Below are positions 1-14,179 of a DNA stretch of 14,852 nt, piece by piece. The notes below the pieces were generated by a model. The model worked only from the letters and a program-made list of their open reading frames with translations. It ran no database searches and had not been told where the DNA came from. Source of the DNA: a virus; UHGV virus genome UHGV-1731069. One strand, written 5' to 3'. A program made the position numbers and the translations under genes. Every line of letters begins with the position of its first letter. Position 1 is the first letter of the stretch.

Positions 1-566
1 CCTATTTTGAATCGGGAGTCAGAATTCATAAAACCTGAGTTAGATAACATTGGCGTCCCACCACTAGATGTACTTCCTTTAGAGAACGGACTCCACGTCC
101 CACCAAACATCTGGTACGCACCGTATGCCTTCAGAGGCGCAGTGAGCAATGTTGTTGCTGCTCCCACATTCCCCTGTTTACGGGCTGAACTGGCTTCTGC
201 TTTATAGTTGGCAGCCTGAACCTGATAACCGTAAGCCTCGCGTTGCGCGTTATTCACCGTCGTCAGCGAATCAAGAGCGCCAAACTGGGCAGTGTCGCCA
301 AATATATCCAGCGCGTTACCTGTAGATAAATCAGCGCCGGTAGCCCCCATTGTCGCCGCCTGTGTACCAAGCCGCTGTCGGGTCTCTCTGCGTCGTTGCT
401 CAGCTTCAGCGTTACCTCTGTTTATTGCATCATTTGCCTGAGCAGTGGCTATATCTGCGTTCGCTTCTGCAACCTTCGAGGCATACTTTCCCTGTTGGTA
501 CTGGGTGTATGCCTGAATGCCACTCATGGCGAGCATTGCACCACCAGCAATAACCGGATCGCACAT
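1..566 (-). CDS. Internal virion protein, N-terminal part (T7 gp14-like by recollection); truncated by window edge
   Basis: Minus-strand ATG at 566..564 overlaps the TAA stop of the upstream gene (TAATG) with GGAGA 8 nt upstream. I translated the frame by hand: 188 codons with no stop to position 1 (MCDPVIAGGAMLAMSGIQAYTQYQQGKYASKVAEANADIATAQ...). Absent from the ORF track because it has no stop in the window. Ala/Gln-rich with an MC start, like podovirus internal virion protein B; fits gene order after the tail tubular genes. Confidence 0.5.
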   Translation of the reverse strand, partial: MCDPVIAGGAMLAMSGIQAYTQYQQGKYASKVAEANADIATAQANDAINRGNAEAEQRRRETRQRLGTQAATMGATGADLSTGNALDIFGDTAQFGALDSLTTVNNAQREAYGYQVQAANYKAEASSARKQGNVGAATTLLTAPLKAYGAYQMFGGTWSPFSKGSTSSGGTPMLSNSGFMNSDSRFKI

Positions 567-1030
567 TATTTTCTCTCCATGTGAAATCTGTGGAAATTAA
601 GACCAAGAGCACCATAAGGCGCGGCTTCTTCAAGCCTGAATCCAAGCCAGTGCAGCCATGCTTTGGCAACATGGTTTCGCTCGTCGACGTAGTTTTCCAG
701 GCGCGGATAAACTGCCAGCATCTGCTGCAATACAGGGCGGCAGTGGCGCAGAAATGTCTTCTGATATTTTTCAATACGGCTGGTTCCGACCAGCCAGGGT
801 GTACCATTGCCACCGATCATTGACGCCGGAGATACACCAAACATGGTTACCAGTTCTCCGTTCGCGAACCCTGACCAGGCCATAGTCGCAGTGCGAAGAC
901 CAACACGCAGCGCATCTTCGGTAGTCATCAGCGATACCGCATACAGTTCGTCAATATCAGCCTGACGAACATCCGGCAAAATCATCTGAAGATGCTCTTC
1001 GGTGGCGGGAATAATTCGAACATCGATCAT
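566..1030 (-). CDS. Hypothetical virion-module protein (positional equivalent of podovirus internal virion protein A)
   Basis: 154-aa ORF with ATG start at 1030 overlapping the upstream stop (ATGA), and its own stop overlapping the next start. The product is not recognisable from sequence; the call rests on position and translational coupling. Confidence 0.5.
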   Translation of the reverse strand: MIDVRIIPATEEHLQMILPDVRQADIDELYAVSLMTTEDALRVGLRTATMAWSGFANGELVTMFGVSPASMIGGNGTPWLVGTSRIEKYQKTFLRHCRPVLQQMLAVYPRLENYVDERNHVAKAWLHWLGFRLEEAAPYGALGLNFHRFHMERK

Positions 1031-3501
1031 CAGAATCCCCCAACAGTAAGACGAGGAATAACGGCAAGAACAGACAGCGGCAACGGATCGAGCTGACGGA
1101 TTTTTACACGTCCGTTTTTGCCCCAGTTACTGTCCAGTTTCACTTCTACTTTTCCGGTAGCGTCATCAACAGGATCATCGTAGAACTCGAATTCACGCTG
1201 TGGATATTCGTACCATTTACCGCCGGGCGTAGTCGCCCAGATGCCGCGACTGGCATTCACAACAAGAGTAACGGACGGGATCACCTGTTTTTTGTCCAGC
1301 AGCGTTTCCTGTCCGTTAATGTTGATATCCAGTGTTTCGAATTCAGCAGTTATTGGCAGGCCGATGTGCACAACAGCCCCAGGTGATTCCAGCGTGACGG
1401 CACCTCCGGAAACCACTTTCTGTGGTTCCACGTTCGCATCAGAGAGAATGTTTACGGTCTGGCCTTCAAGATGAGACAGGCCTCCAAATGTCCGGCGCGC
1501 CATCTGCCAGTACGTGGTGGCCACATTCCTGAGGGATGGCGGGACGTTCCTGTTAGCACGAACCACTACAGCGGTATTGCTGGTTACAGAAATAATGTCG
1601 CAACGTAATTCTTTTGACACCTCATCGCCAGTATCAGGAGCAGTTCCGGTATAAGGGAACTGTAGTTGCGCGCCGACATCACTACTGGTGAAGTACGCAC
1701 CACCAGAAACACTGATTGTATATTCCGCACGGTAATCCCATTCACCAGAACCACCAGTGATGGTCATCGTTCTGTCAGACGTATTTCTTCCATCATAGCT
1801 AAGGCCAGAATCAACAAAGAAAGCATCTTCATCGCTGGTAAATAAACGGCTGGACAGTCGCTCTATGTATCTCACTGTTTGCCCGTTAACGGTTCGGTTA
1901 ACGACGAAATACACCGCATCTTCATTGCCTTCGCTGATACTGCATGTGCTTTCATATTTTCCGGTACTGGATTGTGGTGCCCATGCAAAAACCTGCTGAT
2001 CACGCAAATAGGTCATCACCAGTAATTTACCGTCATCACGAATGCAGAAGGCGCTGGAGTAAGGGACAATCGAGAAGCACCAGTCAACAATGCTGTGCTT
2101 CTGAAAAAGATGATTGGCAAGGATGGTCAGGTCGTTCCCCTGATAGCCGTCAACATCGAATGAGTAGGCCAGATCACGGACAACACTGCCTTTCTCCTGG
2201 ACGAACAGAGCAATATTCGCCACGGCAATTGGTGGGACATTGCTCGAGCCATTTGATCCCTGAGAGCTGAATGCAAATGATGATGGGGTTAATACTTTGT
2301 TCTGGTCGCCGGTGATGACGTACTCACCTCCGGAAGTCAGCGCCACCAGCGAACCAACATCAATCAGGTGGCGGATCTCATTAACCTGACGCCCGGCATA
2401 GGTGTAGATAATTCTGTCGTCATCCTGCGTAGGATTGCTTTTGCCAAAATCCTTATAATCCCCAGTACGGCTGGCCCAGATAGTCTGAGGGAATGCTGTC
2501 GATGCGGCGAAGTAAAGACGTTGTTGATAATAAACAACAGTGCCAGGATAACCGTTAACACTATTCCAGGCATATTTAGCCCATTTATAGCTGGCATTAT
2601 CCTCGCCAACTACCTGCGAAGGGATATAGGAAATCACCTCAGCAGTTGCAGTAGTTCCATTTGCAGCAGAGATACGGGCAATGCCAAAACCACTGTGCAG
2701 ATACTCCCACTCAATGCCAGTATCATCATCACCGGATCCACCCCAGCCATCCCATGATGTGCCTTCTGTATGCGAAGGGCGCAAAGTGCCTGTTTTGCCT
2801 GCTGTAACGGCGCGATAGTAGTTACTGTCTGCACGGCGAATATCGCCAATCGACGTACTCTTACTGGTTTCCCATACCGGCACTGAATCCACTGCAGGCT
2901 GTTCCAGATAGAACAATTTGCCTACCTGCTCCGCGCCAAAAATAGAGGCGCTTGCCGTTAACGTAATTGTCCCGGTGCTGGCGCTGGCATAAACCGTCAC
3001 TGACTCGTCAATATTGATATCTTCAAATGGCCCGTTCTTCGTTACCACATCAACCAGTTGCCAGTTGTCATGCGCATAGCGGCGCAACTCTTTCGGCTGG
3101 TATGCCGGGTGAACCAGCGTAAGCACGTCGGCGCTTTGCGTGAATTTAATTCGGAACAGATCGGCTTCAGTATATGGCGTGGCAATTTCATAAATAACAT
3201 TGCTGCTGTTCAGCACCAACGCACCATCTTTGATAACGCGCATGTACTGGTGTCCGAACTCCAGAGCATAGGTCTGAACCGTCGAGAACTGGAACGGGAT
3301 CAGGCGGCATTTCCGATTTGGGTATTTGGCGGCACCGACAAAACGCGTACCAGGTCGATTCTCAACGCCGCCATACTGCCGCACGATAAAGTTATCGCAC
3401 TTGCGCAATGCCACCTGGTACTTCGCCATGTCGATACGACCGTACAACGACGGTCCAATCTCACCACCGGCAAAGCTGGGCTGGATCCAACTGATAGCCA
3501 T
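1030..3501 (-). CDS. Tail tubular protein B-like (T7 gp12-type) large tail protein
   Basis: 823-aa ORF, ATGA-coupled to neighbours on both sides. N-terminus MAISWIQPSFAGGEIGPSLYGR resembles the gp12-type N-terminal motif as I recall it; size and position immediately after the adaptor-like gene fit. Confidence 0.55.
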   Translation of the reverse strand: MAISWIQPSFAGGEIGPSLYGRIDMAKYQVALRKCDNFIVRQYGGVENRPGTRFVGAAKYPNRKCRLIPFQFSTVQTYALEFGHQYMRVIKDGALVLNSSNVIYEIATPYTEADLFRIKFTQSADVLTLVHPAYQPKELRRYAHDNWQLVDVVTKNGPFEDINIDESVTVYASASTGTITLTASASIFGAEQVGKLFYLEQPAVDSVPVWETSKSTSIGDIRRADSNYYRAVTAGKTGTLRPSHTEGTSWDGWGGSGDDDTGIEWEYLHSGFGIARISAANGTTATAEVISYIPSQVVGEDNASYKWAKYAWNSVNGYPGTVVYYQQRLYFAASTAFPQTIWASRTGDYKDFGKSNPTQDDDRIIYTYAGRQVNEIRHLIDVGSLVALTSGGEYVITGDQNKVLTPSSFAFSSQGSNGSSNVPPIAVANIALFVQEKGSVVRDLAYSFDVDGYQGNDLTILANHLFQKHSIVDWCFSIVPYSSAFCIRDDGKLLVMTYLRDQQVFAWAPQSSTGKYESTCSISEGNEDAVYFVVNRTVNGQTVRYIERLSSRLFTSDEDAFFVDSGLSYDGRNTSDRTMTITGGSGEWDYRAEYTISVSGGAYFTSSDVGAQLQFPYTGTAPDTGDEVSKELRCDIISVTSNTAVVVRANRNVPPSLRNVATTYWQMARRTFGGLSHLEGQTVNILSDANVEPQKVVSGGAVTLESPGAVVHIGLPITAEFETLDININGQETLLDKKQVIPSVTLVVNASRGIWATTPGGKWYEYPQREFEFYDDPVDDATGKVEVKLDSNWGKNGRVKIRQLDPLPLSVLAVIPRLTVGGF

Positions 3502-9000: not shown

Positions 9001-9207
9001 TTACTGACCAAGCAGCGTTTTACCGCTGGTATTAGCAGTTGATGTGTCGCCCTGAGAACCGGTAAGCAGCGTAGAACTACGACCAGCAGCAGCGCGACGG
9101 CGACGTGTTTCTTCGTCGCGGGCATCAACAACGGCGGCATCCTGCTCCTGTGGTGCTGCCTGAACTTCTGGTGTTGCAGGCACTGATGGTGAGCTACCCA
9201 TGCACAT
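9001..9207 (-). CDS. Small low-complexity protein upstream of portal (possibly a gp7.3-like virion protein)
   Basis: 68-aa ORF with ATG at 9207. Its translation initiation region (CGGAGTCATTGA then ATG) duplicates the portal's over 12 nt, which supports real translation. Ala/Pro/Gln/Ser/Thr-rich with an RRRR cluster. Confidence 0.4.
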   Translation of the reverse strand: MCMGSSPSVPATPEVQAAPQEQDAAVVDARDEETRRRRAAAGRSSTLLTGSQGDTSTANTSGKTLLGQ

Positions 9208-9275
9208 ATCAATGACTCCGTACGCAATTAAATTATTACCAATTTAACCACATATGATTTATTTATCGTAGGTAG

Positions 9276-9304
9276 TTGACATTTAACGCACGAATTATTA
9301 CCTT
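9276..9304 (+). promoter_or_regulatory. Candidate sigma70-type promoter reading toward the tRNA
   Basis: Perfect -35 TTGACA (9276-9281), 17-bp spacer, then TACCTT (9299-9304), which matches the three most conserved -10 positions. Lies in an AT-rich tract with a 10-bp direct repeat AATTATTACC at 9231-9240 and 9293-9302. Confidence 0.25.
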
Positions 9305-9635
9305 TCAGGTAAGTAAAGGGTTCATTCCGGTTATTAACCTGACTGGCTTGTCGTTAAATTGAACAGGTGGAGTGAGCTTTTATTTTGAGCAGTACGGCGT
9401 ATGGCACATGCGCCGATAGCGGTCTGGATACGTTTAAGGGGCACCCTCCCTTGCTCGGGCAAACGAACCAGGTAGCTGGAATGTGCAAGTCGAGCGGTTT
9501 TATTCCGCGCGCGGGGATTCACCATCCCGGCGATTCGGTGTGACGCCTCGGAAGAGACGAGGGTACAACGATGAGAGCATTTATGGAGCTGCGACAAAGT
9601 GTGGCGCACTTAACAGGCTAAGTGCTCTCAGCGTT

Positions 9636-9712
9636 GTGGCATTAGCTCAGTTGGACAGAGCAACCGCCTTCTAAGCGGTTGGTCGCAGGTTCGAATCCTG
9701 CATGCCACGCCA
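9636..9712 (+). tRNA. tRNA-Arg (anticodon TCT, reads AGA), argU-like, phage-encoded
   Basis: Hand-folded cloverleaf: acceptor GTGGCAT/ATGCCAC, D-stem GCTC/GAGC, anticodon stem ACCGC/GCGGT with loop CTTCTAA (anticodon TCT), T-arm GCAGG-TTCGAAT-CCTGC, discriminator G and encoded CCA. Closely resembles E. coli argU as I recall it but with a different acceptor stem. Confidence 0.9.
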
Positions 9713-10420: not shown

Positions 10421-11896
10421 TTAAGCATAGGGATCGTAATCTGTGATGGCCTTGCCTTGCTGGTTCTGCTGCCCGGGAATTCGCAGACGCTTCGACACAG
10501 GAAAAGCAAACGTCAGCAGTAGCGCATCGCCTTTACCCGGCGAACGCCCAAGCCGCTCCTTGATATCTTCCTTCGGTTCGATAACGATTTTACCGTCCAC
10601 GCGAACTTTGTACTCTGCCGCCGACAGGTCGTCTGCAGTTTCCTGGTCATCCAGCATGCCGCCCAGCCTCAGCCATGTCTTACATGAGTTGAACATCTCC
10701 CCACGCTTGTTGAGCATCTGCGGGTCAGTAGACGCGCCACCGAACGGAACAAGTTGCCATGTACGACCCCAGCCGTCACCGATTGACTTCAGACCAGTTC
10801 CGTAACCGAAGTCGATGAACACTGCGTCAGCCTGGTACTGGTCTTCAAAGTCAGCGATACGCTTCGCCATAATCAGATCGTCAGTGGTCTTGTTGCCAGT
10901 CCACAGCACCTTACTGTGCAGCCCCTGCCGCAGGTATATCACAGCGTCATCAACGCCTGAGTATGCCGGGTCAACGCCGATTATCACCGGAGCATGTGCA
11001 ACCTGCGCAGCGGTGACCACCCGTTTCATTGCCTCGTCAGTAAGTCCGGTAGGGATAAACTGCAATTCAGATGCATCCGGGAATATGCCGCGCACACGGA
11101 TTTTAACGAAGTCGCTGTCTTCCCCGTAGTCATCAACCCATTTCTGCAACTGCTGTTTGTTGGTGCCTTCCACCGTCCGGCTGTCAATCTGCGCAGTTTT
11201 CCAGCGGTGTTTATATTTGCGGAAACATTCGCGGAAACGTCCGGTATTACGCGTCGGGTTTCCGAACGCCACCCAGATAATCTCAGTGTCTTCGTCCGTA
11301 AGCGCACCCTCAGCAACTTCCCACACCAGATCCGCAATGTTCGACGCTTCATCGAATACCACGATGATGCGTTTGCGCTCGTTGTGTAGTCCGGCGAATG
11401 CCTCAGTGTTGTGCTCAGACCAGGGGATTGCGTCAGCTCGCCACCGCTTGTCGTGCCCAGGATCATTGCTGTACATCGCGGTAGCGGTACAGGTAAACCA
11501 GTCTTTCGTGATAGCAAGGTTCGACCACTTGATAATTTCCGGCCAGGTCTTCGTTCGTAGCTGGTTGTCGGTGTTGGCAGTCACCACGACCTTACAATCC
11601 TCGCAAGTGGACATGCCCCAGTTGATCAGCATTGAGATGAATGCGGATTTACCAATACCGTGACCAGAAGCGCGTGCCAGCATAAGCGGCTGATAGCGCG
11701 TCTCTGGATTCTGCAGGTGATCACGTATCTCTCGGAACGCATCAGCCTGCCACTGACGTGGGCCGGTGGCATGTGCCAGTTCAGTCCCCTCTTCCCCCCA
11801 CGGGAACGCATAGAGGGCATAGCCAAGCGGATCGTGAGTGAACCCTGCAATATCCTCGATCAACTGCTCTTCAGGAGATAACGCTGTATCTGTCAC
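10421..11896 (-). CDS. Terminase large subunit
   Basis: 491 aa with Walker A-like ARASGHGIGKS, Walker B-like IIVVFDEAS, and a C-terminal nuclease-like region (VIIGVDPAYSGVDDAV). GTG start at 11896 overlaps the small subunit stop (GTGA); there is no in-frame ATG nearby. Confidence 0.85.
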   Translation of the reverse strand: MTDTALSPEEQLIEDIAGFTHDPLGYALYAFPWGEEGTELAHATGPRQWQADAFREIRDHLQNPETRYQPLMLARASGHGIGKSAFISMLINWGMSTCEDCKVVVTANTDNQLRTKTWPEIIKWSNLAITKDWFTCTATAMYSNDPGHDKRWRADAIPWSEHNTEAFAGLHNERKRIIVVFDEASNIADLVWEVAEGALTDEDTEIIWVAFGNPTRNTGRFRECFRKYKHRWKTAQIDSRTVEGTNKQQLQKWVDDYGEDSDFVKIRVRGIFPDASELQFIPTGLTDEAMKRVVTAAQVAHAPVIIGVDPAYSGVDDAVIYLRQGLHSKVLWTGNKTTDDLIMAKRIADFEDQYQADAVFIDFGYGTGLKSIGDGWGRTWQLVPFGGASTDPQMLNKRGEMFNSCKTWLRLGGMLDDQETADDLSAAEYKVRVDGKIVIEPKEDIKERLGRSPGKGDALLLTFAFPVSKRLRIPGQQNQQGKAITDYDPYA

Positions 11897-12489
11897 TGAT
11901 TACCATCCTGACGTTCTTTGAGTCGCTTCCTGGCTGCTGCTATGCGATCAGCAATTGTCACATTCACATTAACATCCAGACGTTCTTTGAACGCGTTGAC
12001 ATCAACATGCTTACCAATCAGCTCAAGGTTCTTCACCTTGTCAGGCCATTTAATTTTTTTGAGGATTGTCTCTATCGAATCCTCGTTCATGTTCATGATG
12101 GTCGATGACAGATCAAAGCCACTAAGCGTAGTGCGCCAGATTTTCGGCCACTCACGGATTGGTTTAAGGCTCCCATCGTCGTTGAGGATATCGATCACGT
12201 CCATCTGGTCGATCTCCACCAGGCGCATGAGAACGTAATCAGCACTGACGCGCATTCGTTTGTTGCGCTCCTCCATCAACTCGGCAATCCGTTTTTGAAT
12301 GCGTTCATCGCGCATCATGACACTGGCTTTAACTGCCGCTGTATTTGGGGAGAATCCTGCATTAATCGCTGCCTGAGTCTGGTTTTCAGGCGTTTTGATG
12401 TATGACTGGCAATAAGCCTCCTGCATTGCTGTTAGTGGCTTAAATTGCGTTGATTTGCGTTTATAGGTTTTAGGTTCAGCAGGCATCAT
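11893..12489 (-). CDS. Terminase small subunit (Terminase_2-like)
   Basis: Helix-turn-helix region QEAYCQSYIKTPENQTQAAINAGFSPNTAAV...RIQKRIAELMEER is typical of Terminase_2-type small subunits as I recall them. The ORF track starts at TTG 12567, but that extension contains a terminator hairpin and direct repeats; the ATG pair at 12489/12486 follows GGTGG. True start is probably 12486 or 12489. Confidence 0.75.
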   Translation of the reverse strand: MMPAEPKTYKRKSTQFKPLTAMQEAYCQSYIKTPENQTQAAINAGFSPNTAAVKASVMMRDERIQKRIAELMEERNKRMRVSADYVLMRLVEIDQMDVIDILNDDGSLKPIREWPKIWRTTLSGFDLSSTIMNMNEDSIETILKKIKWPDKVKNLELIGKHVDVNAFKERLDVNVNVTIADRIAAARKRLKERQDGNQ

Positions 12490-12496
12490 AACCACC

Positions 12497-12525
12497 GTGG
12501 TAATAGTTACCGTTGTGGTAATAGT
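12497..12525. repeat. Two 11-bp direct repeats GTGGTAATAGT just upstream of the terminase small subunit start
   Basis: Copies at 12497-12507 and 12515-12525, between the upstream terminator and the start codon. Could be protein-binding sites; function unknown. Confidence 0.4.
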
Positions 12526-12530
12526 ACCAT

Positions 12531-12558
12531 GCAAAATAAAGCCGCCATAGTTGGCGGC
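12531..12558 (-). terminator. Intrinsic terminator separating the accessory operon from the terminase genes
   Basis: In the minus transcript: GCCGCCA-acua-UGGCGGC followed by UUUAUUUUG. Confidence 0.55.
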
Positions 12559-12598
12559 AGTATTCAAAACCCATCAAATTCATCATGCATAATCTACT

Positions 12599-12612
12599 CG
12601 TGACATGTCACA
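12599..12612. repeat. CGTGACATGTCACA, containing the perfect 12-bp palindrome GTGACATGTCAC (copy 2)
   Basis: Identical 14-mer to 10334-10347; overlaps the TGA stop (12608-12610) of the upstream minus-strand gene and lies upstream of the terminator and terminase start. Confidence 0.6.
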
Positions 12613-12946
12613 CTATTAATTTCGTTTCATGCCAGCCTTTAGTCACCCAGCATTGCGAGTCACCATTACACGGGCATGAATTCACAGGAACTCTCTCGCC
12701 GCACTTACCGCAACGTTTTCTGCCGATCGATTTTATACGCCCGTGCGCGCGAGCATCATCCTGGCGGATAAGTAACGCAATATACTCACCAAATTCGTAA
12801 GGCACACGCCCGGGGCGACGCGTGGCGCAGTTCCGCTCCAGCATTTCAATTTCCTGAGCATCAAGCACAATCTCCAGCTTACGTACACCGGATGCAGCTT
12901 GTCTGGCTCTCTGAGCGGCTTTGCGCTCTGCTGCTGATTTAGCCAT
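12608..12946 (-). CDS. Putative small DNA-binding protein: ribbon-helix-helix-like N-terminus plus C-terminal Cys-rich zinc-ribbon-like tail
   Basis: 112 aa, ATG at 12946. RKLEIVLDAQEIEMLERNCATRRPGRVPYEFGEYIALLIRQD has the strand-helix-helix pattern of RHH (Arc/CopG-type) domains; the C-terminus has CGKCG...CPCNGDSQC. Family assignment is pattern-based and tentative. Confidence 0.45.
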   Translation of the reverse strand: MAKSAAERKAAQRARQAASGVRKLEIVLDAQEIEMLERNCATRRPGRVPYEFGEYIALLIRQDDARAHGRIKSIGRKRCGKCGERVPVNSCPCNGDSQCWVTKGWHETKLIV

Positions 12947-13289
12947 TCTGATTTTCCTGCATCATGAGAAATACAATCATGGCGGCTCGGAGTGGATTAT
13001 TCGCATGAAAGCAAATGTTCTCAGCATTAAAAACAGCTGACCACTCACCGCGAGAGTGGTGGCAGGTTAGACTGATTTTATTATCAACAATAATAGGCCA
13101 TGCATCCGATGGATTATTGCAGTAGTCAGGTAAAGGGTTTAATGGCTCAAAAGTTGTATCAGTATTTCCGTAATACCATTTGTTGGTGTTATTCCCTGAT
13201 GTTTCCGGTTTACACGCCCAAAGGCCTTTAAAAATTATGTCTCCTACCATTCTGTTAATTTCAAAATCACTTAACTGTGAATAGTCCAT
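12939..13289 (-). CDS. Hypothetical small Cys/His-containing phage protein
   Basis: The ORF track starts at GTG 13292; the ATG at 13289 overlaps the upstream stop (TGATG) with GGAGG 7 nt upstream. Overlaps the downstream gene by 8 nt. Vaguely resembles small DUF-type proteins of lambdoid nin regions, but not confidently. Confidence 0.5.
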   Translation of the reverse strand: MDYSQLSDFEINRMVGDIIFKGLWACKPETSGNNTNKWYYGNTDTTFEPLNPLPDYCNNPSDAWPIIVDNKISLTCHHSRGEWSAVFNAENICFHANNPLRAAMIVFLMMQENQNG

Positions 13290-14179
13290 CACTTCACCTC
13301 CTGCGGCGGTTCTGGTAGAGGCATCCAGTGAGTTACATGTGCCCCGTAATGATTCCAGAACGACGCAACTGGCGCACTGTCTCCATCAGGGACAACCCAG
13401 TAATCGTGATGAACTTTATTATTAAGCCCATCAAACACCAGATACTCTTTACAACTTCCGGGAATGTTCTCAGGCATTCGCTCACTACAGCTTATCCAAC
13501 CATCCGGAGTTACCGGAACTTGCGGAATGGCTGTCTGCTCTCGAACGTCATTAGGCGCTATAGGTTCTGCTGCCAACTGACTGGCATATTTGTTAATGGT
13601 AACGATAAGCTCTTGCTCAGCCTCATCCAGACAATCACCGATACCTCGCCTGTCACCGTCAAAATCATCGAAATCGGCACGAATCTTGGCAACCTTCTGG
13701 ATTGCGGACAACACCTCACTAGGAATTACCGGATAGTTGGTTGACGTTTCCGCGATTTCCCGAAAATTATTGGTTGACGAATTCTTGTTTTCCCGAAAGT
13801 TTCCGGACTGAAGCATGGCGGCGCGGCAGGCGTTCCAGCCTCTCACCTCTGCAATAGCGGCAACAGCATCAACCGCGTACATGCTAAGAGGATTAGGCAT
13901 TGGTTTTTCTTCCGGTACTACTGGAACGGGGGGAGCGGCGTAGACCTCAATAATTCCATTATCAATAGGCCATTCTCCATCCTTGAGGTAGTCACTTGTG
14001 CCGTCAACTTGCTGTTCTGCAATGTGGAATGCACCTATTGGTTTTGCTTCCAGCGATGCCAGAGCAATTCGTGCCAGTTCTTCCGCTTCTTCTGCTGGCA
14101 GTACAACGTTGCTATCAGGTCCGTATGTTTCGCGCCACTGCTTGATTGTCAGCAGTCGCTCTTTGGTAATAGTGGTCAT
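13289..14179 (-). CDS. DUF551-like phage protein
   Basis: 296 aa, ATG at 14179 with AAGGAGAG upstream. The C-terminal motif WNHYGAHVTHWMPLPEPP matches what I recall as the hallmark of DUF551 domains in temperate-phage early regions. Confidence 0.55.
   Translation of the reverse strand: MTTITKERLLTIKQWRETYGPDSNVVLPAEEAEELARIALASLEAKPIGAFHIAEQQVDGTSDYLKDGEWPIDNGIIEVYAAPPVPVVPEEKPMPNPLSMYAVDAVAAIAEVRGWNACRAAMLQSGNFRENKNSSTNNFREIAETSTNYPVIPSEVLSAIQKVAKIRADFDDFDGDRRGIGDCLDEAEQELIVTINKYASQLAAEPIAPNDVREQTAIPQVPVTPDGWISCSERMPENIPGSCKEYLVFDGLNNKVHHDYWVVPDGDSAPVASFWNHYGAHVTHWMPLPEPPQEVK

Follow-up and report, generated by a model that had tools for sequence, protein, structure and literature searches.

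The stretch of DNA analyzed here (14,852 nucleotides, referred to as the window) belongs to an epsilon15/phiV10-like (Uetakevirus) prophage, and all of the elements described below are read on the minus strand. The prophage region is matched in 503 of 5426 complete E. coli genomes, and the 301-bp region upstream of terS, the small terminase gene, is 100% identical between the window and a prophage of E. coli IAI39. For the terS control region, the comparison set comprised 13 non-redundant relatives (loci) from about ten enterobacterial genera, with conservation expressed as the mean share of the majority base across the 13 loci. Ten prophage loci were compared, including those named L013, L015, L017, L019, L021, and L022. 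The window contains neither the immunity region nor a rep gene; the repressor context was taken from phiV10, epsilon15, and the IAI39 prophage.

Directly upstream of the terS control region lies a gp49-like gene (12608..12946), whose 112-aa product has a Cys-rich C-terminus. This protein matches PHROG 536, 'transcriptional regulator' (E=2.9e-53), and its counterpart carries the same label in the epsilon15, phiV10, and TL-2011b records; neither Pfam nor NCBIfam gave a match. The gene is the last of the early-right operon, which is closed by an intrinsic (rho-independent) terminator at 12531..12558. The terminator stem begins 49 nt past the gp49-like stop codon and pairs 12558-12552 with 12547-12541 (GCCGCCA-ACTA-TGGCGGC, 12558-12541; 7 pairs, 6 of them G-C) around a 4-nt loop, ACTA; TTTATTTT comes next, and a GC completes the element at 12531. 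A terminator scan of 11800-13400 returned 6 terminator-like sites, compared to 1.2 expected, and ranked this one top, confirming together with the sequence a hairpin that had been noticed at 12531-12558 in an earlier note on this DNA. The hairpin also forms in the minimum-free-energy fold (-33.8 kcal/mol for the whole 96 nt, z -4.2). Its stem is kept in 10 of the 10 loci that have the terminator, the sole changes being G-U or U-G wobbles; the other 3 of the 13 loci have a umuD-like gene in its place. Covariation was looked for among the loci (10 with the terminator), and no compensatory double changes were seen in this stem or in the leader hairpin discussed below. In epsilon15, the counterpart that follows gp49 is annotated as a rho-independent terminator (39646..39672). 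An Rfam search of the region gave no family match; its sole hit, rseX, was below threshold (27.8 bits compared to a gathering score of 50, E=0.21) and driven by the terminator, and was rejected as the identity of the region.

The longest open reading frame for the small terminase (11893..12567) starts with TTG and encodes 224 aa. The earlier note had argued that the true start lies further downstream and that homologues should reveal where conservation begins. Pfam Terminase_2 (PF03592) matches the long frame (E=1.4e-29, 103.9 bits, cut-off 26.1) only from residue 45 to residue 200, corresponding to residues 18-173 of a 197-aa form, and the match to PHROG 51 (E=8e-58) begins at residue 3 of this short form. 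The short form (11893..12486, 197 aa plus stop) begins at the second ATG of an ATGATG (12489-12484); use of the first, at 12489, would add one Met. A Shine-Dalgarno-like GGTGG (12492..12496), largely conserved among relatives, is located 5 nt before ATG 12486 and 2 nt before ATG 12489. The second ATG is the sole universal start, and ATG-CC is invariant in 13/13 loci. Deposited phage records differ, giving TerS as 197, 198, 222, 223, or 224 aa: TL-2011b and Tyrion carry the 594-nt form of the gene, and the long form appears in phiV10, SPN1S, PAT1, and VB_ST_E15 as well as in RefSeq/PGAP. Judging from the conserved codon, the real start is the ATG pair and most likely its second ATG, 12486, which would yield a 197-aa protein. 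The TTG extension (12567 down to 12490), the GGTGG (12496-12492), and the double ATG that the note described are all present. Its figure of a 26-codon shortening is correct for the distance from TTG to the first ATG (12489), but with the second ATG, the one conserved in relatives, the shortening is 27 codons.

The TTG-initiated extension (12487..12567) is non-coding and a spurious product of the longest-ORF rule. Stop codons or 1-2 nt indels break its frame in 7 of the 13 non-redundant relatives, with the DNA elements conserved. Such stops or indels occur in L013, L015, L017, L019, and L021, and Klebsiella phages ST512-KPC3phi13.3 and Kp4865-1 have an in-frame TAA inside the operator described below; both keep a perfect ATTACCTAAAAGGTAAT, whose TAA is the in-frame stop. 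The start codon of the extension is TTG, ATG, or ACG depending on the phage, with ACG in epsilon15 and Tyrion, and in epsilon15 an in-frame TAA stands just upstream of the start-codon position. That the 224-aa frame is nevertheless the real TerS, with the hairpin and repeats inside its coding sequence, could be argued from the frame being open in the window, phiV10, epsilon15, SPN1S, PAT1, and others, from the records cited above that annotate the long form, and from the similarity of the translated extensions between phages (NYGGFILHGTIT... compared to DYGGFVLRVTIT...). We give this reading practically no weight, given the broken frames, the unconserved start codon, and the onset of family homology downstream of the ATG; it would also place a strong terminator within the gene. 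The earlier note had named conserved residues in the extension as grounds for abandoning the shorter start. Such similarity is indeed seen, but it does not count against the shorter start, since the terminator and operator DNA beneath it is conserved and accounts for the apparent amino-acid conservation. On this comparison of sequences, 12487-12567 is an intergenic control region before the terminase operon and lies outside TerS.

Between the terminator and the start codon are two exact copies of the 11-bp sequence GTGGTAATAGT, at 12497-12507 and 12515-12525, which the earlier note had reported; they are offset by 18 bp. Allowing up to 1 mismatch, the window has 3 matches compared to 0.13 expected, and none of 200 shuffles reached 3. 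Each repeat consists of ACT, an ATTACC half-site, and the first two bases of a spacer. A motif scan showed that the half-sites belong to two operator-like dyads of 17 bp, each 1 mismatch from ATTACC-N5-GGTAAT: O1 at 12506..12522 (ATTACC-ACAAC-GGTAAC; ATTACCACAACGGTAAC) and a second, weaker one, O2, at 12488..12504 (ATTACC-ACGGT-GGTTAT; ATTACCACGGTGGTTAT). These stand in tandem, 18 bp apart, with the repeat at 12525-12515 overlapping the left half of O1 and that at 12507-12497 overlapping the left half of O2. The tandem arrangement of two copies of one dyad operator thus accounts for the two 11-bp direct repeats. O2 spans the Shine-Dalgarno GGTGG and the first ATG, and an operator that overlaps the ribosome-binding site right before the ATG is also found at epsilon15 gp43 and phiV10 p45.

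O1 aligns with, and is orthologous to, the epsilon15 protein_bind feature 'repressor' at 12..27. In L013-L021 a dyad with no more than 1 mismatch lies 36-38 nt before the ATG, and in L022 it lies further upstream. Across the 13 loci, conservation is 0.97-0.98 for the O1 half-sites and 0.71 for the O1 spacer, compared to 0.88 and 0.71, respectively, for O2. O2 has 2 mismatches in epsilon15 and, by our own count from the sequences, about 4 in the two Klebsiella phages named above; it appears degenerate outside the E. coli group, and its conservation may partly reflect the Shine-Dalgarno sequence. Only in the E. coli/Klebsiella ATCC 13883 lineage are the two 11-bp copies perfectly identical, and they differ in epsilon15, Tyrion, and others, as might be expected of a functionless repeat that arose by chance or by recent local duplication. 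Given the shuffling result, the conservation of both half-sites across about ten genera, and the membership of the motif in a genome-wide family, however, we regard such an origin as very improbable.

The sequence TGG-TACTAT (12521..12529) lies directly past the terminator T-tract, and its terminal AT doubles as the start of O1. In the general form TGnTAnTAT, the TG, TA, and TAT are invariant in 13/13 loci, whereas the n position and the third base of the hexamer vary; the invariant bases thus include the TG, T-12, A-11, and T-7 of an extended -10 element. The sequence is retained in the 3 loci that have an unrelated upstream gene and no terminator. This conservation is not a property of the operator, since other copies of the operator have unconserved left flanks. 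The same register is found at the PL promoters, where the -10 ends in the AT of ATTACC with a consensus TTGACA -35 at 17 nt. An extended -10 sigma-70 promoter has TGn directly before a TAnnnT hexamer and can work without a -35. TGG-TACTAT has both of these elements, TACTAT agreeing with TATAAT at 4 of 6 positions; no recognizable -35 was found for it, and a two-hexamer promoter scan did not report it. We infer that TGG-TACTAT is the extended -10 promoter element of terS-terL, so that TGGTACTAT would have promoter activity, with transcription predicted to start near 12514, about 7 nt downstream and inside O1. Another candidate, which the same generic scan did report, GTGACA-18-CATGAT (12611-12582), was rejected, its -10 not being conserved in L017 or L019.

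The dyad is not restricted to terS. With no more than 1 mismatch, ATTACC-N5-GGTAAT occurs 3 times in the window (compared to 0.0 in simulated sequences, none of which gave such a dyad), 9 times in phiV10 (0.05), and 11 times in epsilon15 (0.03). The third copy in the window, CTTACCTGAAAGGTAAT (9297..9313), lies about 90 nt upstream of a gp3-like gene (9001..9207) and matches in position the annotated epsilon15 repressor site 2931..2947 and phiV10 3251..3267, both upstream of the gp3 homologue. In the epsilon15 RefSeq record, the terS-proximal repressor site and 6 further sites share ATTACC-N5-GGTAAT. The motif was intergenic in every case checked, including 8 of 8 sites in the IAI39 prophage, which flank rep and precede a DUF1064 gene, terS, and the gp3-like gene. 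Copies stand before terminase, head, tail-fibre, lysis, and replication-side operons. At the repressor gene itself, epsilon15 has three sites on each side, and phiV10 and IAI39 have two downstream plus one in the rep-cro gap; the motif there flanks rep (2311..2895), with sites at 2176, 2238, and 2950. In every one of the nine prophage loci that extend into the immunity region, a Rep homologue is encoded next to the site clusters.

The phiV10 Rep (p40 / WP_000836290.1) is a full-length homologue of SPC32H Rep (PDB 5D50; E=4e-42), and the IAI39 prophage repressor is likewise homologous. According to a published summary (PMC9638917), Rep forms a tetramer and recognizes palindromic operators, and another (PMC9986798) describes its tetramerisation domain as of the DNA-looping type. 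The N-terminal domain of Rep, including an L[VI][NS]RW motif that we take to be the recognition helix, is better conserved than the rest of the protein. The dyad is unchanged in all 10 prophage loci although Rep identity falls to 36-45%, which speaks against Rep as the binder. Dimeric helix-turn-helix repressors typically have dyad sites whose spacer varies. On balance, the evidence suggests that O1 and O2 are likely prophage-repressor sites to which Rep would bind. The earlier note had envisaged binding of the repeats by a regulator or by the terminase itself. The first of these is supported by the finding that the repeats are the left halves of a dyad annotated as a repressor site in epsilon15; the second fits poorly with at least 9 sites per genome that cluster around the repressor gene.

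A role of the repeats in packaging, as a pac site bound by the small terminase in the manner of SPP1 pacL/pacR near the start of gene 1, has some attraction. Pfam and an HHpred note in the epsilon15 record place TerS in Terminase_2, alongside SF6 and SPP1 G1P; phages of this kind have pac sites within or adjoining terS, with short repeats in them; and several genome records begin only a little upstream of here, although by convention and not from mapping of ends. Nevertheless, a pac site should be a sequence specific to the locus where packaging initiates, and we find the motif at 9-11 sites per genome, beside the repressor gene and before unrelated operons, in the dyad form expected of a repressor; furthermore, Cronobacter phage phiES15, whose terS is 60% identical, lacks the motif upstream of that gene. 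We therefore consider a pac site made of these repeats highly unlikely, though a separate one may lie close by or within terS, and terminase binding to the repeats is, on the sequence evidence, unlikely. As for which regulator binds, Rep, Cro-like, and gp49-like genes are present in every locus that covers the relevant region, and since all three co-occur with the motif, co-occurrence cannot name the binding protein. The Cro-like and gp49-like proteins are the more conserved (57-78% identity compared to 36-99% for Rep), as an invariant motif would lead one to expect; the position of the gp49-like gene, directly upstream, resembles that of late regulators in other phages, and in lambda, Cro and CI share operators. 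Either of these two, rather than Rep, could thus be what mainly binds at terS, acting as a repressor in the lytic cycle or as an activator of late genes. We judge this improbable, because site clusters immediately flank rep in the manner of classical OL and OR, the DNA-binding domain of Rep is conserved, and in epsilon15 the annotation attributes the sites to the repressor. Moreover, sharing of the operator by Cro would add to the role of Rep, not replace it. A heteroimmune relative with the same terS and a different operator was not found among the 10 prophage loci.

It is also conceivable that the repeats act in RNA. In a read-through transcript, ACCAC of repeat 1 could pair with the GGUGGU Shine-Dalgarno region, and UAU and GGUA with the AUG region, so that a leader hairpin would mask the terS ribosome-binding site and only transcripts starting inside O1 would be translated. 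In agreement with this, the 66-nt leader is predicted to fold into a masking hairpin (-16.9 kcal/mol, z -2.4; 4 of 200 shuffles were as good), while in RNA starting from 12514 the AUG codons are unpaired and part of GGUGG lies in a weak stem (-9.3 kcal/mol, z -1.0). In Kp4865-1, which has no terminator, the hairpin that encloses the ribosome-binding site is stronger (-21.9 kcal/mol, z -2.7). However, the epsilon15 leader has no equivalent fold (z -1.3), covariation is absent, and, as noted above, there is no Rfam family match. In addition, tandem copies of a dyad must yield such complementarity, and the fold may be a by-product. From these modeled folds, we see a small but real chance that the repeats work in this way.

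Our preferred reading, which we consider quite probable given the conserved elements, is that 12487-12567 is a control region composed of the terminator, the extended -10, and O1 and O2 as sites for Rep, with TerS starting at 12486. Transcription of the early-right operon would end at the terminator, past the gp49-like gene, and directly beyond the T-tract would lie the -35-independent extended -10, overlapping O1; 18 bp further on, O2 would overlap the ribosome-binding site. In a lysogen, tetrameric Rep, of the family of SPC32H Rep, would occupy O1 and, more weakly, O2, occluding the -10 and the predicted start region and keeping terS-terL silent. Upon inactivation of Rep, the terS-terL promoter would fire.

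This arrangement could be part of a genus-wide switch of three layers, which as a whole we hold to be speculative and doubtful. The first layer would be direct silencing of a dedicated, -35-independent terminase promoter by Rep through tandem operators, as part of a distributed regulon whose operator has stayed the same across some ten enterobacterial genera even as Rep identity dropped to about 36-45%. In the second, read-through RNA would be translationally silent through the Shine-Dalgarno-masking hairpin formed by the operator sequences. The third would draw on a conserved 8-codon mini-ORF (MHDEFDGF), whose end, in the E. coli-type variant, lies 5 nt short of the terminator stem; a ribosome terminating there could modulate transcription termination.

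The closest known counterpart is in epsilon15, whose genome was reportedly the subject of a 2007 study by Kropinski et al. (Virology, volume 369, page 234). In its RefSeq record (NC_004775.2), the same position is occupied by the terminator after gp49 and by the 'repressor' feature about 20 nt before terS (47..643), and the consensus ATTACC-N5-GGTAAT is shared with the window. The window differs in having one mismatch in O1 (GGTAAC) and an O2 that is nearer to consensus (1 mismatch compared to 2), yielding a perfect 11-bp direct repeat and the second ATG. In the epsilon15 record, O2 and TGnTAnTAT are unannotated and the repressor sites are themselves predictions. The paper on vB_EcoP_ZX5 does not discuss operators at terS, and literature searches by keyword, aimed at the operator sequence and at pac or termini in Uetakevirus, yielded no useful result.

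The Rep-Ant immunity system of Salmonella phage SPC32H/SPN1S is reportedly the subject of work by Kim and Ryu in 2013 and by Kim et al. in PNAS in 2016, with Rep structures 5D50 and 5D4Z in the PDB. Homologous Rep proteins are present in phiV10 and the IAI39 prophage, and the looping type of tetramerisation domain, as described in PMC9986798, fits the paired sites at terS; in contrast, the window has no rep gene, and the Rep operator at terS is predicted. As with OL/OR and CI/Cro of lambda, the dyads form clusters flanking the repressor gene and share bases with the -10 of PL- and PR-like promoters, and repression would act by promoter occlusion. Unlike in lambda, extra copies precede the terminase, head, tail-fibre, lysis, and replication-side operons, which suggests that the repressor controls late genes directly. 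In the terS region, no single late promoter of the lambda type was recognized. The 'stoperators' of gp71 in mycobacteriophage L5 are asymmetric 13-mers in one orientation that act on elongating polymerase. They resemble the present sites in being many repressor-site copies dispersed through the genome outside the immunity region, whereas the dyads here are symmetric and the terS site overlaps a putative -10, pointing to control of initiation. The pac region of SPP1/SF6 adjoins the small terminase gene and, like the region studied here, has short repeats at the 5' edge of a Terminase_2-family terS, but the repeat family here is not specific to terS.

The terS control region is thus ordinary and essentially already known, its counterpart being annotated in Salmonella phage epsilon15. 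The main value of the comparison is for annotation, in that it fixes the TerS start at a conserved ATG where phage records disagree. RefSeq/PGAP carries the over-long 224-aa small terminase WP_001090120.1 in E. coli IAI39, the one genome inspected. The case also illustrates a trap, since an N-terminal extension can look conserved in its amino acids owing to conserved regulatory DNA. For the epsilon15-like phages, the distribution of the dyads suggests that the repressor would act at the terminase operon and at several others, a modest extension of the epsilon15 annotation.

The window comes from a temperate podovirus of the epsilon15/phiV10 type (genus Uetakevirus) whose genes lie on the minus strand. 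Over 11850-13000 the window shares 97-98% identity with Escherichia phages HEMP4, vB_EcoP_ZX5, TL-2011b and phiV10, and of 5426 complete E. coli genomes 503 contain a match, in many cases 100% identical, to the 301 bp around the small-terminase (terS) control region. The genes run in the order ead/Ea22-like, DUF551, NinX, a gp49-like 'transcriptional regulator' (12608..12946, minus strand, 112 aa), TerS (Pfam Terminase_2, E=1.4e-29) and TerL. A tRNA-Arg (anticodon TCT), also annotated in the E. coli IAI39 prophage, lies between terL and the head genes at 9636-9712 (+), oriented against the late genes. For comparison we used 13 non-redundant loci from phages and prophages, the latter taken from one genome scan (Pseudocitrobacter, Citrobacter, Erwinia, Scandinavium, Superficieibacter, Pseudescherichia and Buttiauxella).

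By the mechanical longest-ORF rule, terS spans 11893..12567 (minus strand) and starts at a TTG. Public records are at odds over this start: a short 594-nt gene is annotated in TL-2011b and Tyrion and its equivalent (597 nt) in epsilon15, while long forms appear in phiV10, VB_ST_E15, SPN1S, PAT1 and, by RefSeq/PGAP, IAI39. In IAI39, the one genome among the 503 whose annotation was read for this, the long 675-nt form is WP_001090120.1 (NC_011750.1 2780357..2781031; L024 9114..9788). ST512-KPC3phi13.3 carries an over-short 534-nt form.

The earlier note had proposed that terS begins 26 codons downstream of the TTG, and every element it named (hairpin, repeats, GGTGG at 12496-12492 and the double ATG, ATGATG, at 12489-12484, all on the minus strand) is present. 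Sequence comparison indicates that the extension is non-coding. In two Klebsiella phages the operator is perfect, ATTACCTAAAAGGTAAT, and its TAA stops the extension frame; in five prophages the extension contains stop codons or indels of 1-2 nt. As the codon that would start it, the E. coli group has TTG, SPN1S and PAT1 have ATG, and epsilon15 and Tyrion have ACG, preceded in epsilon15 by an in-frame TAA just upstream. A shorter gene is thus nearly certain, though probably not from the first ATG (12489, 198 aa), which is found only in the window lineage and in Erwinia dacicola, where a G follows the terminal T of the right half of O2, the second of the two dyads described below. Because ATG-CC, the window's second ATG, is the sole start invariant among the 13 loci, we place the start at 12486, giving 197 aa. 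Translated extensions do resemble one another between phages (…NYGGFILHGTIT… versus …DYGGFVLRVTIT…), since the DNA elements inside them are conserved; conserved residues across the extension, which the earlier note would have counted against the short start, would therefore have misled.

Within the extension, the hairpin GCCGCCA-ACTA-TGGCGGC plus TTTATTTT at 12558-12531 (minus strand) was ranked the best terminator-like site in the region, and the epsilon15 RefSeq record has a rho-independent terminator at its very end, after gp49. A terminator here is very probable; it would stop early-right transcription after the gp49-like gene. No Rfam family matched the region; a sub-threshold rseX (sRNA family) match at 12534-12619 (minus strand; 27.8 bits where the gathering score is 50; E=0.21) ends at the terminator and is probably driven by it alone.

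Just upstream, at 12564-12590 (minus strand), lies a conserved 8-codon mini-ORF (ATG CAT GAT GAA TTT GAT GGG TTT TGA, MHDEFDGF*). Its stop codon shares bases with the spurious TTG start and precedes the terminator stem by 5 nt. Orthologues read MRDEFDGF (L017), MTDEFDGF (L019), MLDEFDGF (L021) and MHDEFDVF (TL-2011b); most differences are synonymous (GGG/GGT/GGA, TTT/TTC, GAT/GAC), and each copy has a purine-rich stretch 4-6 nt upstream. The mini-ORF is missing from epsilon15-type loci. It may be the remnant of a longer ORF, as the same DNA forms the 3' end of one in L014 and ST512; alternatively, it could encode a leader peptide, and a ribosome terminating on it would then sit over the terminator's 5' arm. 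At 12602-12613, GTGACATGTCAC forms a perfect 12-bp palindrome that overlaps the gp49-like stop codon. Every related locus examined that contains the gp49-like gene end has it, unchanged or with a single change, even where the downstream gene differs; it could be a protein-binding site. Three loci (L007:540-610, L013:9545-9615 and L015:9530-9615) have, in place of the terminator, a promoter with a perfect LexA box (TACTGT-N8-ACAGTA) and a umuD-like gene. This insertion separates the gp49-like gene from terS, and directly after the umuD-like stop codon come a TGnTAnTAT element and O1, the first of the two dyads.

The 11-mer GTGGTAATAGT occurs exactly twice, at 12497-12507 and 12515-12525, and none of 200 shuffles reached the observed number of matches. 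Each copy consists of 'ACT', the left half-site of a dyad and two spacer bases. The epsilon15 RefSeq record annotates a 'repressor / lysogeny' protein_bind site at 12..27, about 20 nt before terS, and six further such sites; all seven share ATTACC-N5-GGTAAT. O1 (ATTACCACAACGGTAAC, 12522-12506) and O2 (ATTACCACGGTGGTTAT, 12504-12488), both on the minus strand, each match this consensus with one mismatch, and the motif scan found a third copy upstream of the gp3-like gene (9297-9313). Sites with at most one mismatch far outnumber those in simulations (window, 3 versus 0.0; phiV10, 9 versus 0.05; epsilon15, 11 versus 0.03). The IAI39 prophage is identical to the window across the 301-bp terS upstream region, and 8/8 of its copies are intergenic: two just downstream of the repressor gene rep, one between rep and a cro-like gene, two before a DUF1064 gene, two before terS and one before the gp3-like gene. 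Across the 13 loci the O1 half-sites are near invariant (0.97-0.98) and the spacer varies freely (0.71). O2 is weaker (half-sites 0.88, spacer 0.71), and we rate it as slightly less likely than not to be functional.

Operator pairs exactly 62 bp apart, centre to centre, recur in epsilon15 (35906/35968), phiV10 (31952/32014 and 35069/35131), L013 and IAI39 (L024 2176/2238 and 5274/5336), which suggests cooperative binding or looping by a tetrameric repressor. A second conserved motif, (C)ATATGTGGTT, lies at 9246-9255 (minus strand) in the window, at 2989, 19941, 24752 and 35954 in epsilon15 and at 3309, 20922 and 24740 in phiV10, with four copies per genome against about 0.7 expected. It follows the operator by about 30-45 nt before the gp3, tail-fibre, lysis and gp43/p45 operons, and at p45 it takes up the spacer that separates a TTGATT -35 from an operator-overlapping -10. 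It is absent at terS, and may be part of a shared late-promoter architecture.

In L013-L022, prophages from about ten enterobacterial genera, the half-sites ATTACC/GGTAAT are unchanged relative to phiV10 and epsilon15, while Rep, the prophage repressor, is only 36-99% identical; temperate phages normally diversify their immunity specificity, which makes this unusual. Both phiV10 and the IAI39 prophage encode a repressor homologous over its full length to SPC32H Rep (PDB 5D50, E=4e-42). Overall Rep identity falls as low as 36-45%, but the N-terminal domain, in which an L[VI][NS]RW motif is taken to be the recognition helix, is better conserved (mean pairwise identity 0.60 versus 0.48), making an unchanged operator plausible. 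Published work describes Rep as a tetramer binding palindromic DNA (PMC9638917) and its tetramerisation domain as of the DNA-looping type (PMC9986798).

A 9-base element, TGG-TACTAT (12529-12521, minus strand), lies just upstream of O1 and runs into it; TG, TA and TAT are invariant in 13/13 loci, with variation at the 'n' position and at the third base of the hexamer. This is the pattern predicted for an extended -10 promoter, a reading whose activity we consider an evenly balanced call. The element lacks a -35 and was not reported by a generic two-hexamer promoter scan. TGnTAnTAT is kept in the Kp4865-1, Pseudocitrobacter and Erwinia loci, where a LexA-box-controlled umuD-like gene stands in place of the terminator and the DNA further upstream is unrelated. 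Other operator copies show no conservation of their left flanks, so conservation of TGG-TACTAT is not a property of the operator. In the PL promoters of epsilon15 and phiV10 a consensus TTGACA -35 lies at 17 nt and the -10 ends in the 'AT' of ATTACC, which puts that -10 in the same register relative to the operator.

That a regulator or the terminase itself binds the repeats had been suggested; the match to the epsilon15 repressor-site consensus favours the regulator, and we think it probable that the dyads are sites of the immunity repressor. A pac site is unlikely, as the motif is not specific to terS and is missing in front of the phage phiES15 terS, which is 60% identical. Co-occurrence would equally fit a Cro-like or gp49-like protein at the dyads. 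The repeats might instead act in RNA, by a hairpin masking the Shine-Dalgarno and AUG region: in read-through RNA repeat 1 pairs with that region (-16.9 kcal/mol, z -2.4), in RNA from 12514 the AUG codons are unpaired, though part of GGUGG pairs weakly, and in Kp4865-1 a hairpin enclosing the ribosome-binding site is even stronger. However, epsilon15 has no equivalent fold, covariation is absent, and tandem copies of one dyad necessarily yield such complementarity. With Rep as the binder, the terS-terL operon would have its own weak promoter; in a lysogen, Rep on O1 (and O2) would cover the -10 and the predicted start region, and inactivation of Rep would release the promoter.

The terS control region is ordinary and essentially known: epsilon15 has a terminator and an O1 site annotated at the orthologous place, and several RefSeq phage records already use the short start. 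What we add is small: an account of the direct repeats as tandem candidate operators, the conserved extended -10 element, decisive evidence against the long ORF, and the observation that this long form stands in the RefSeq/PGAP annotation of IAI39, the E. coli genome inspected.
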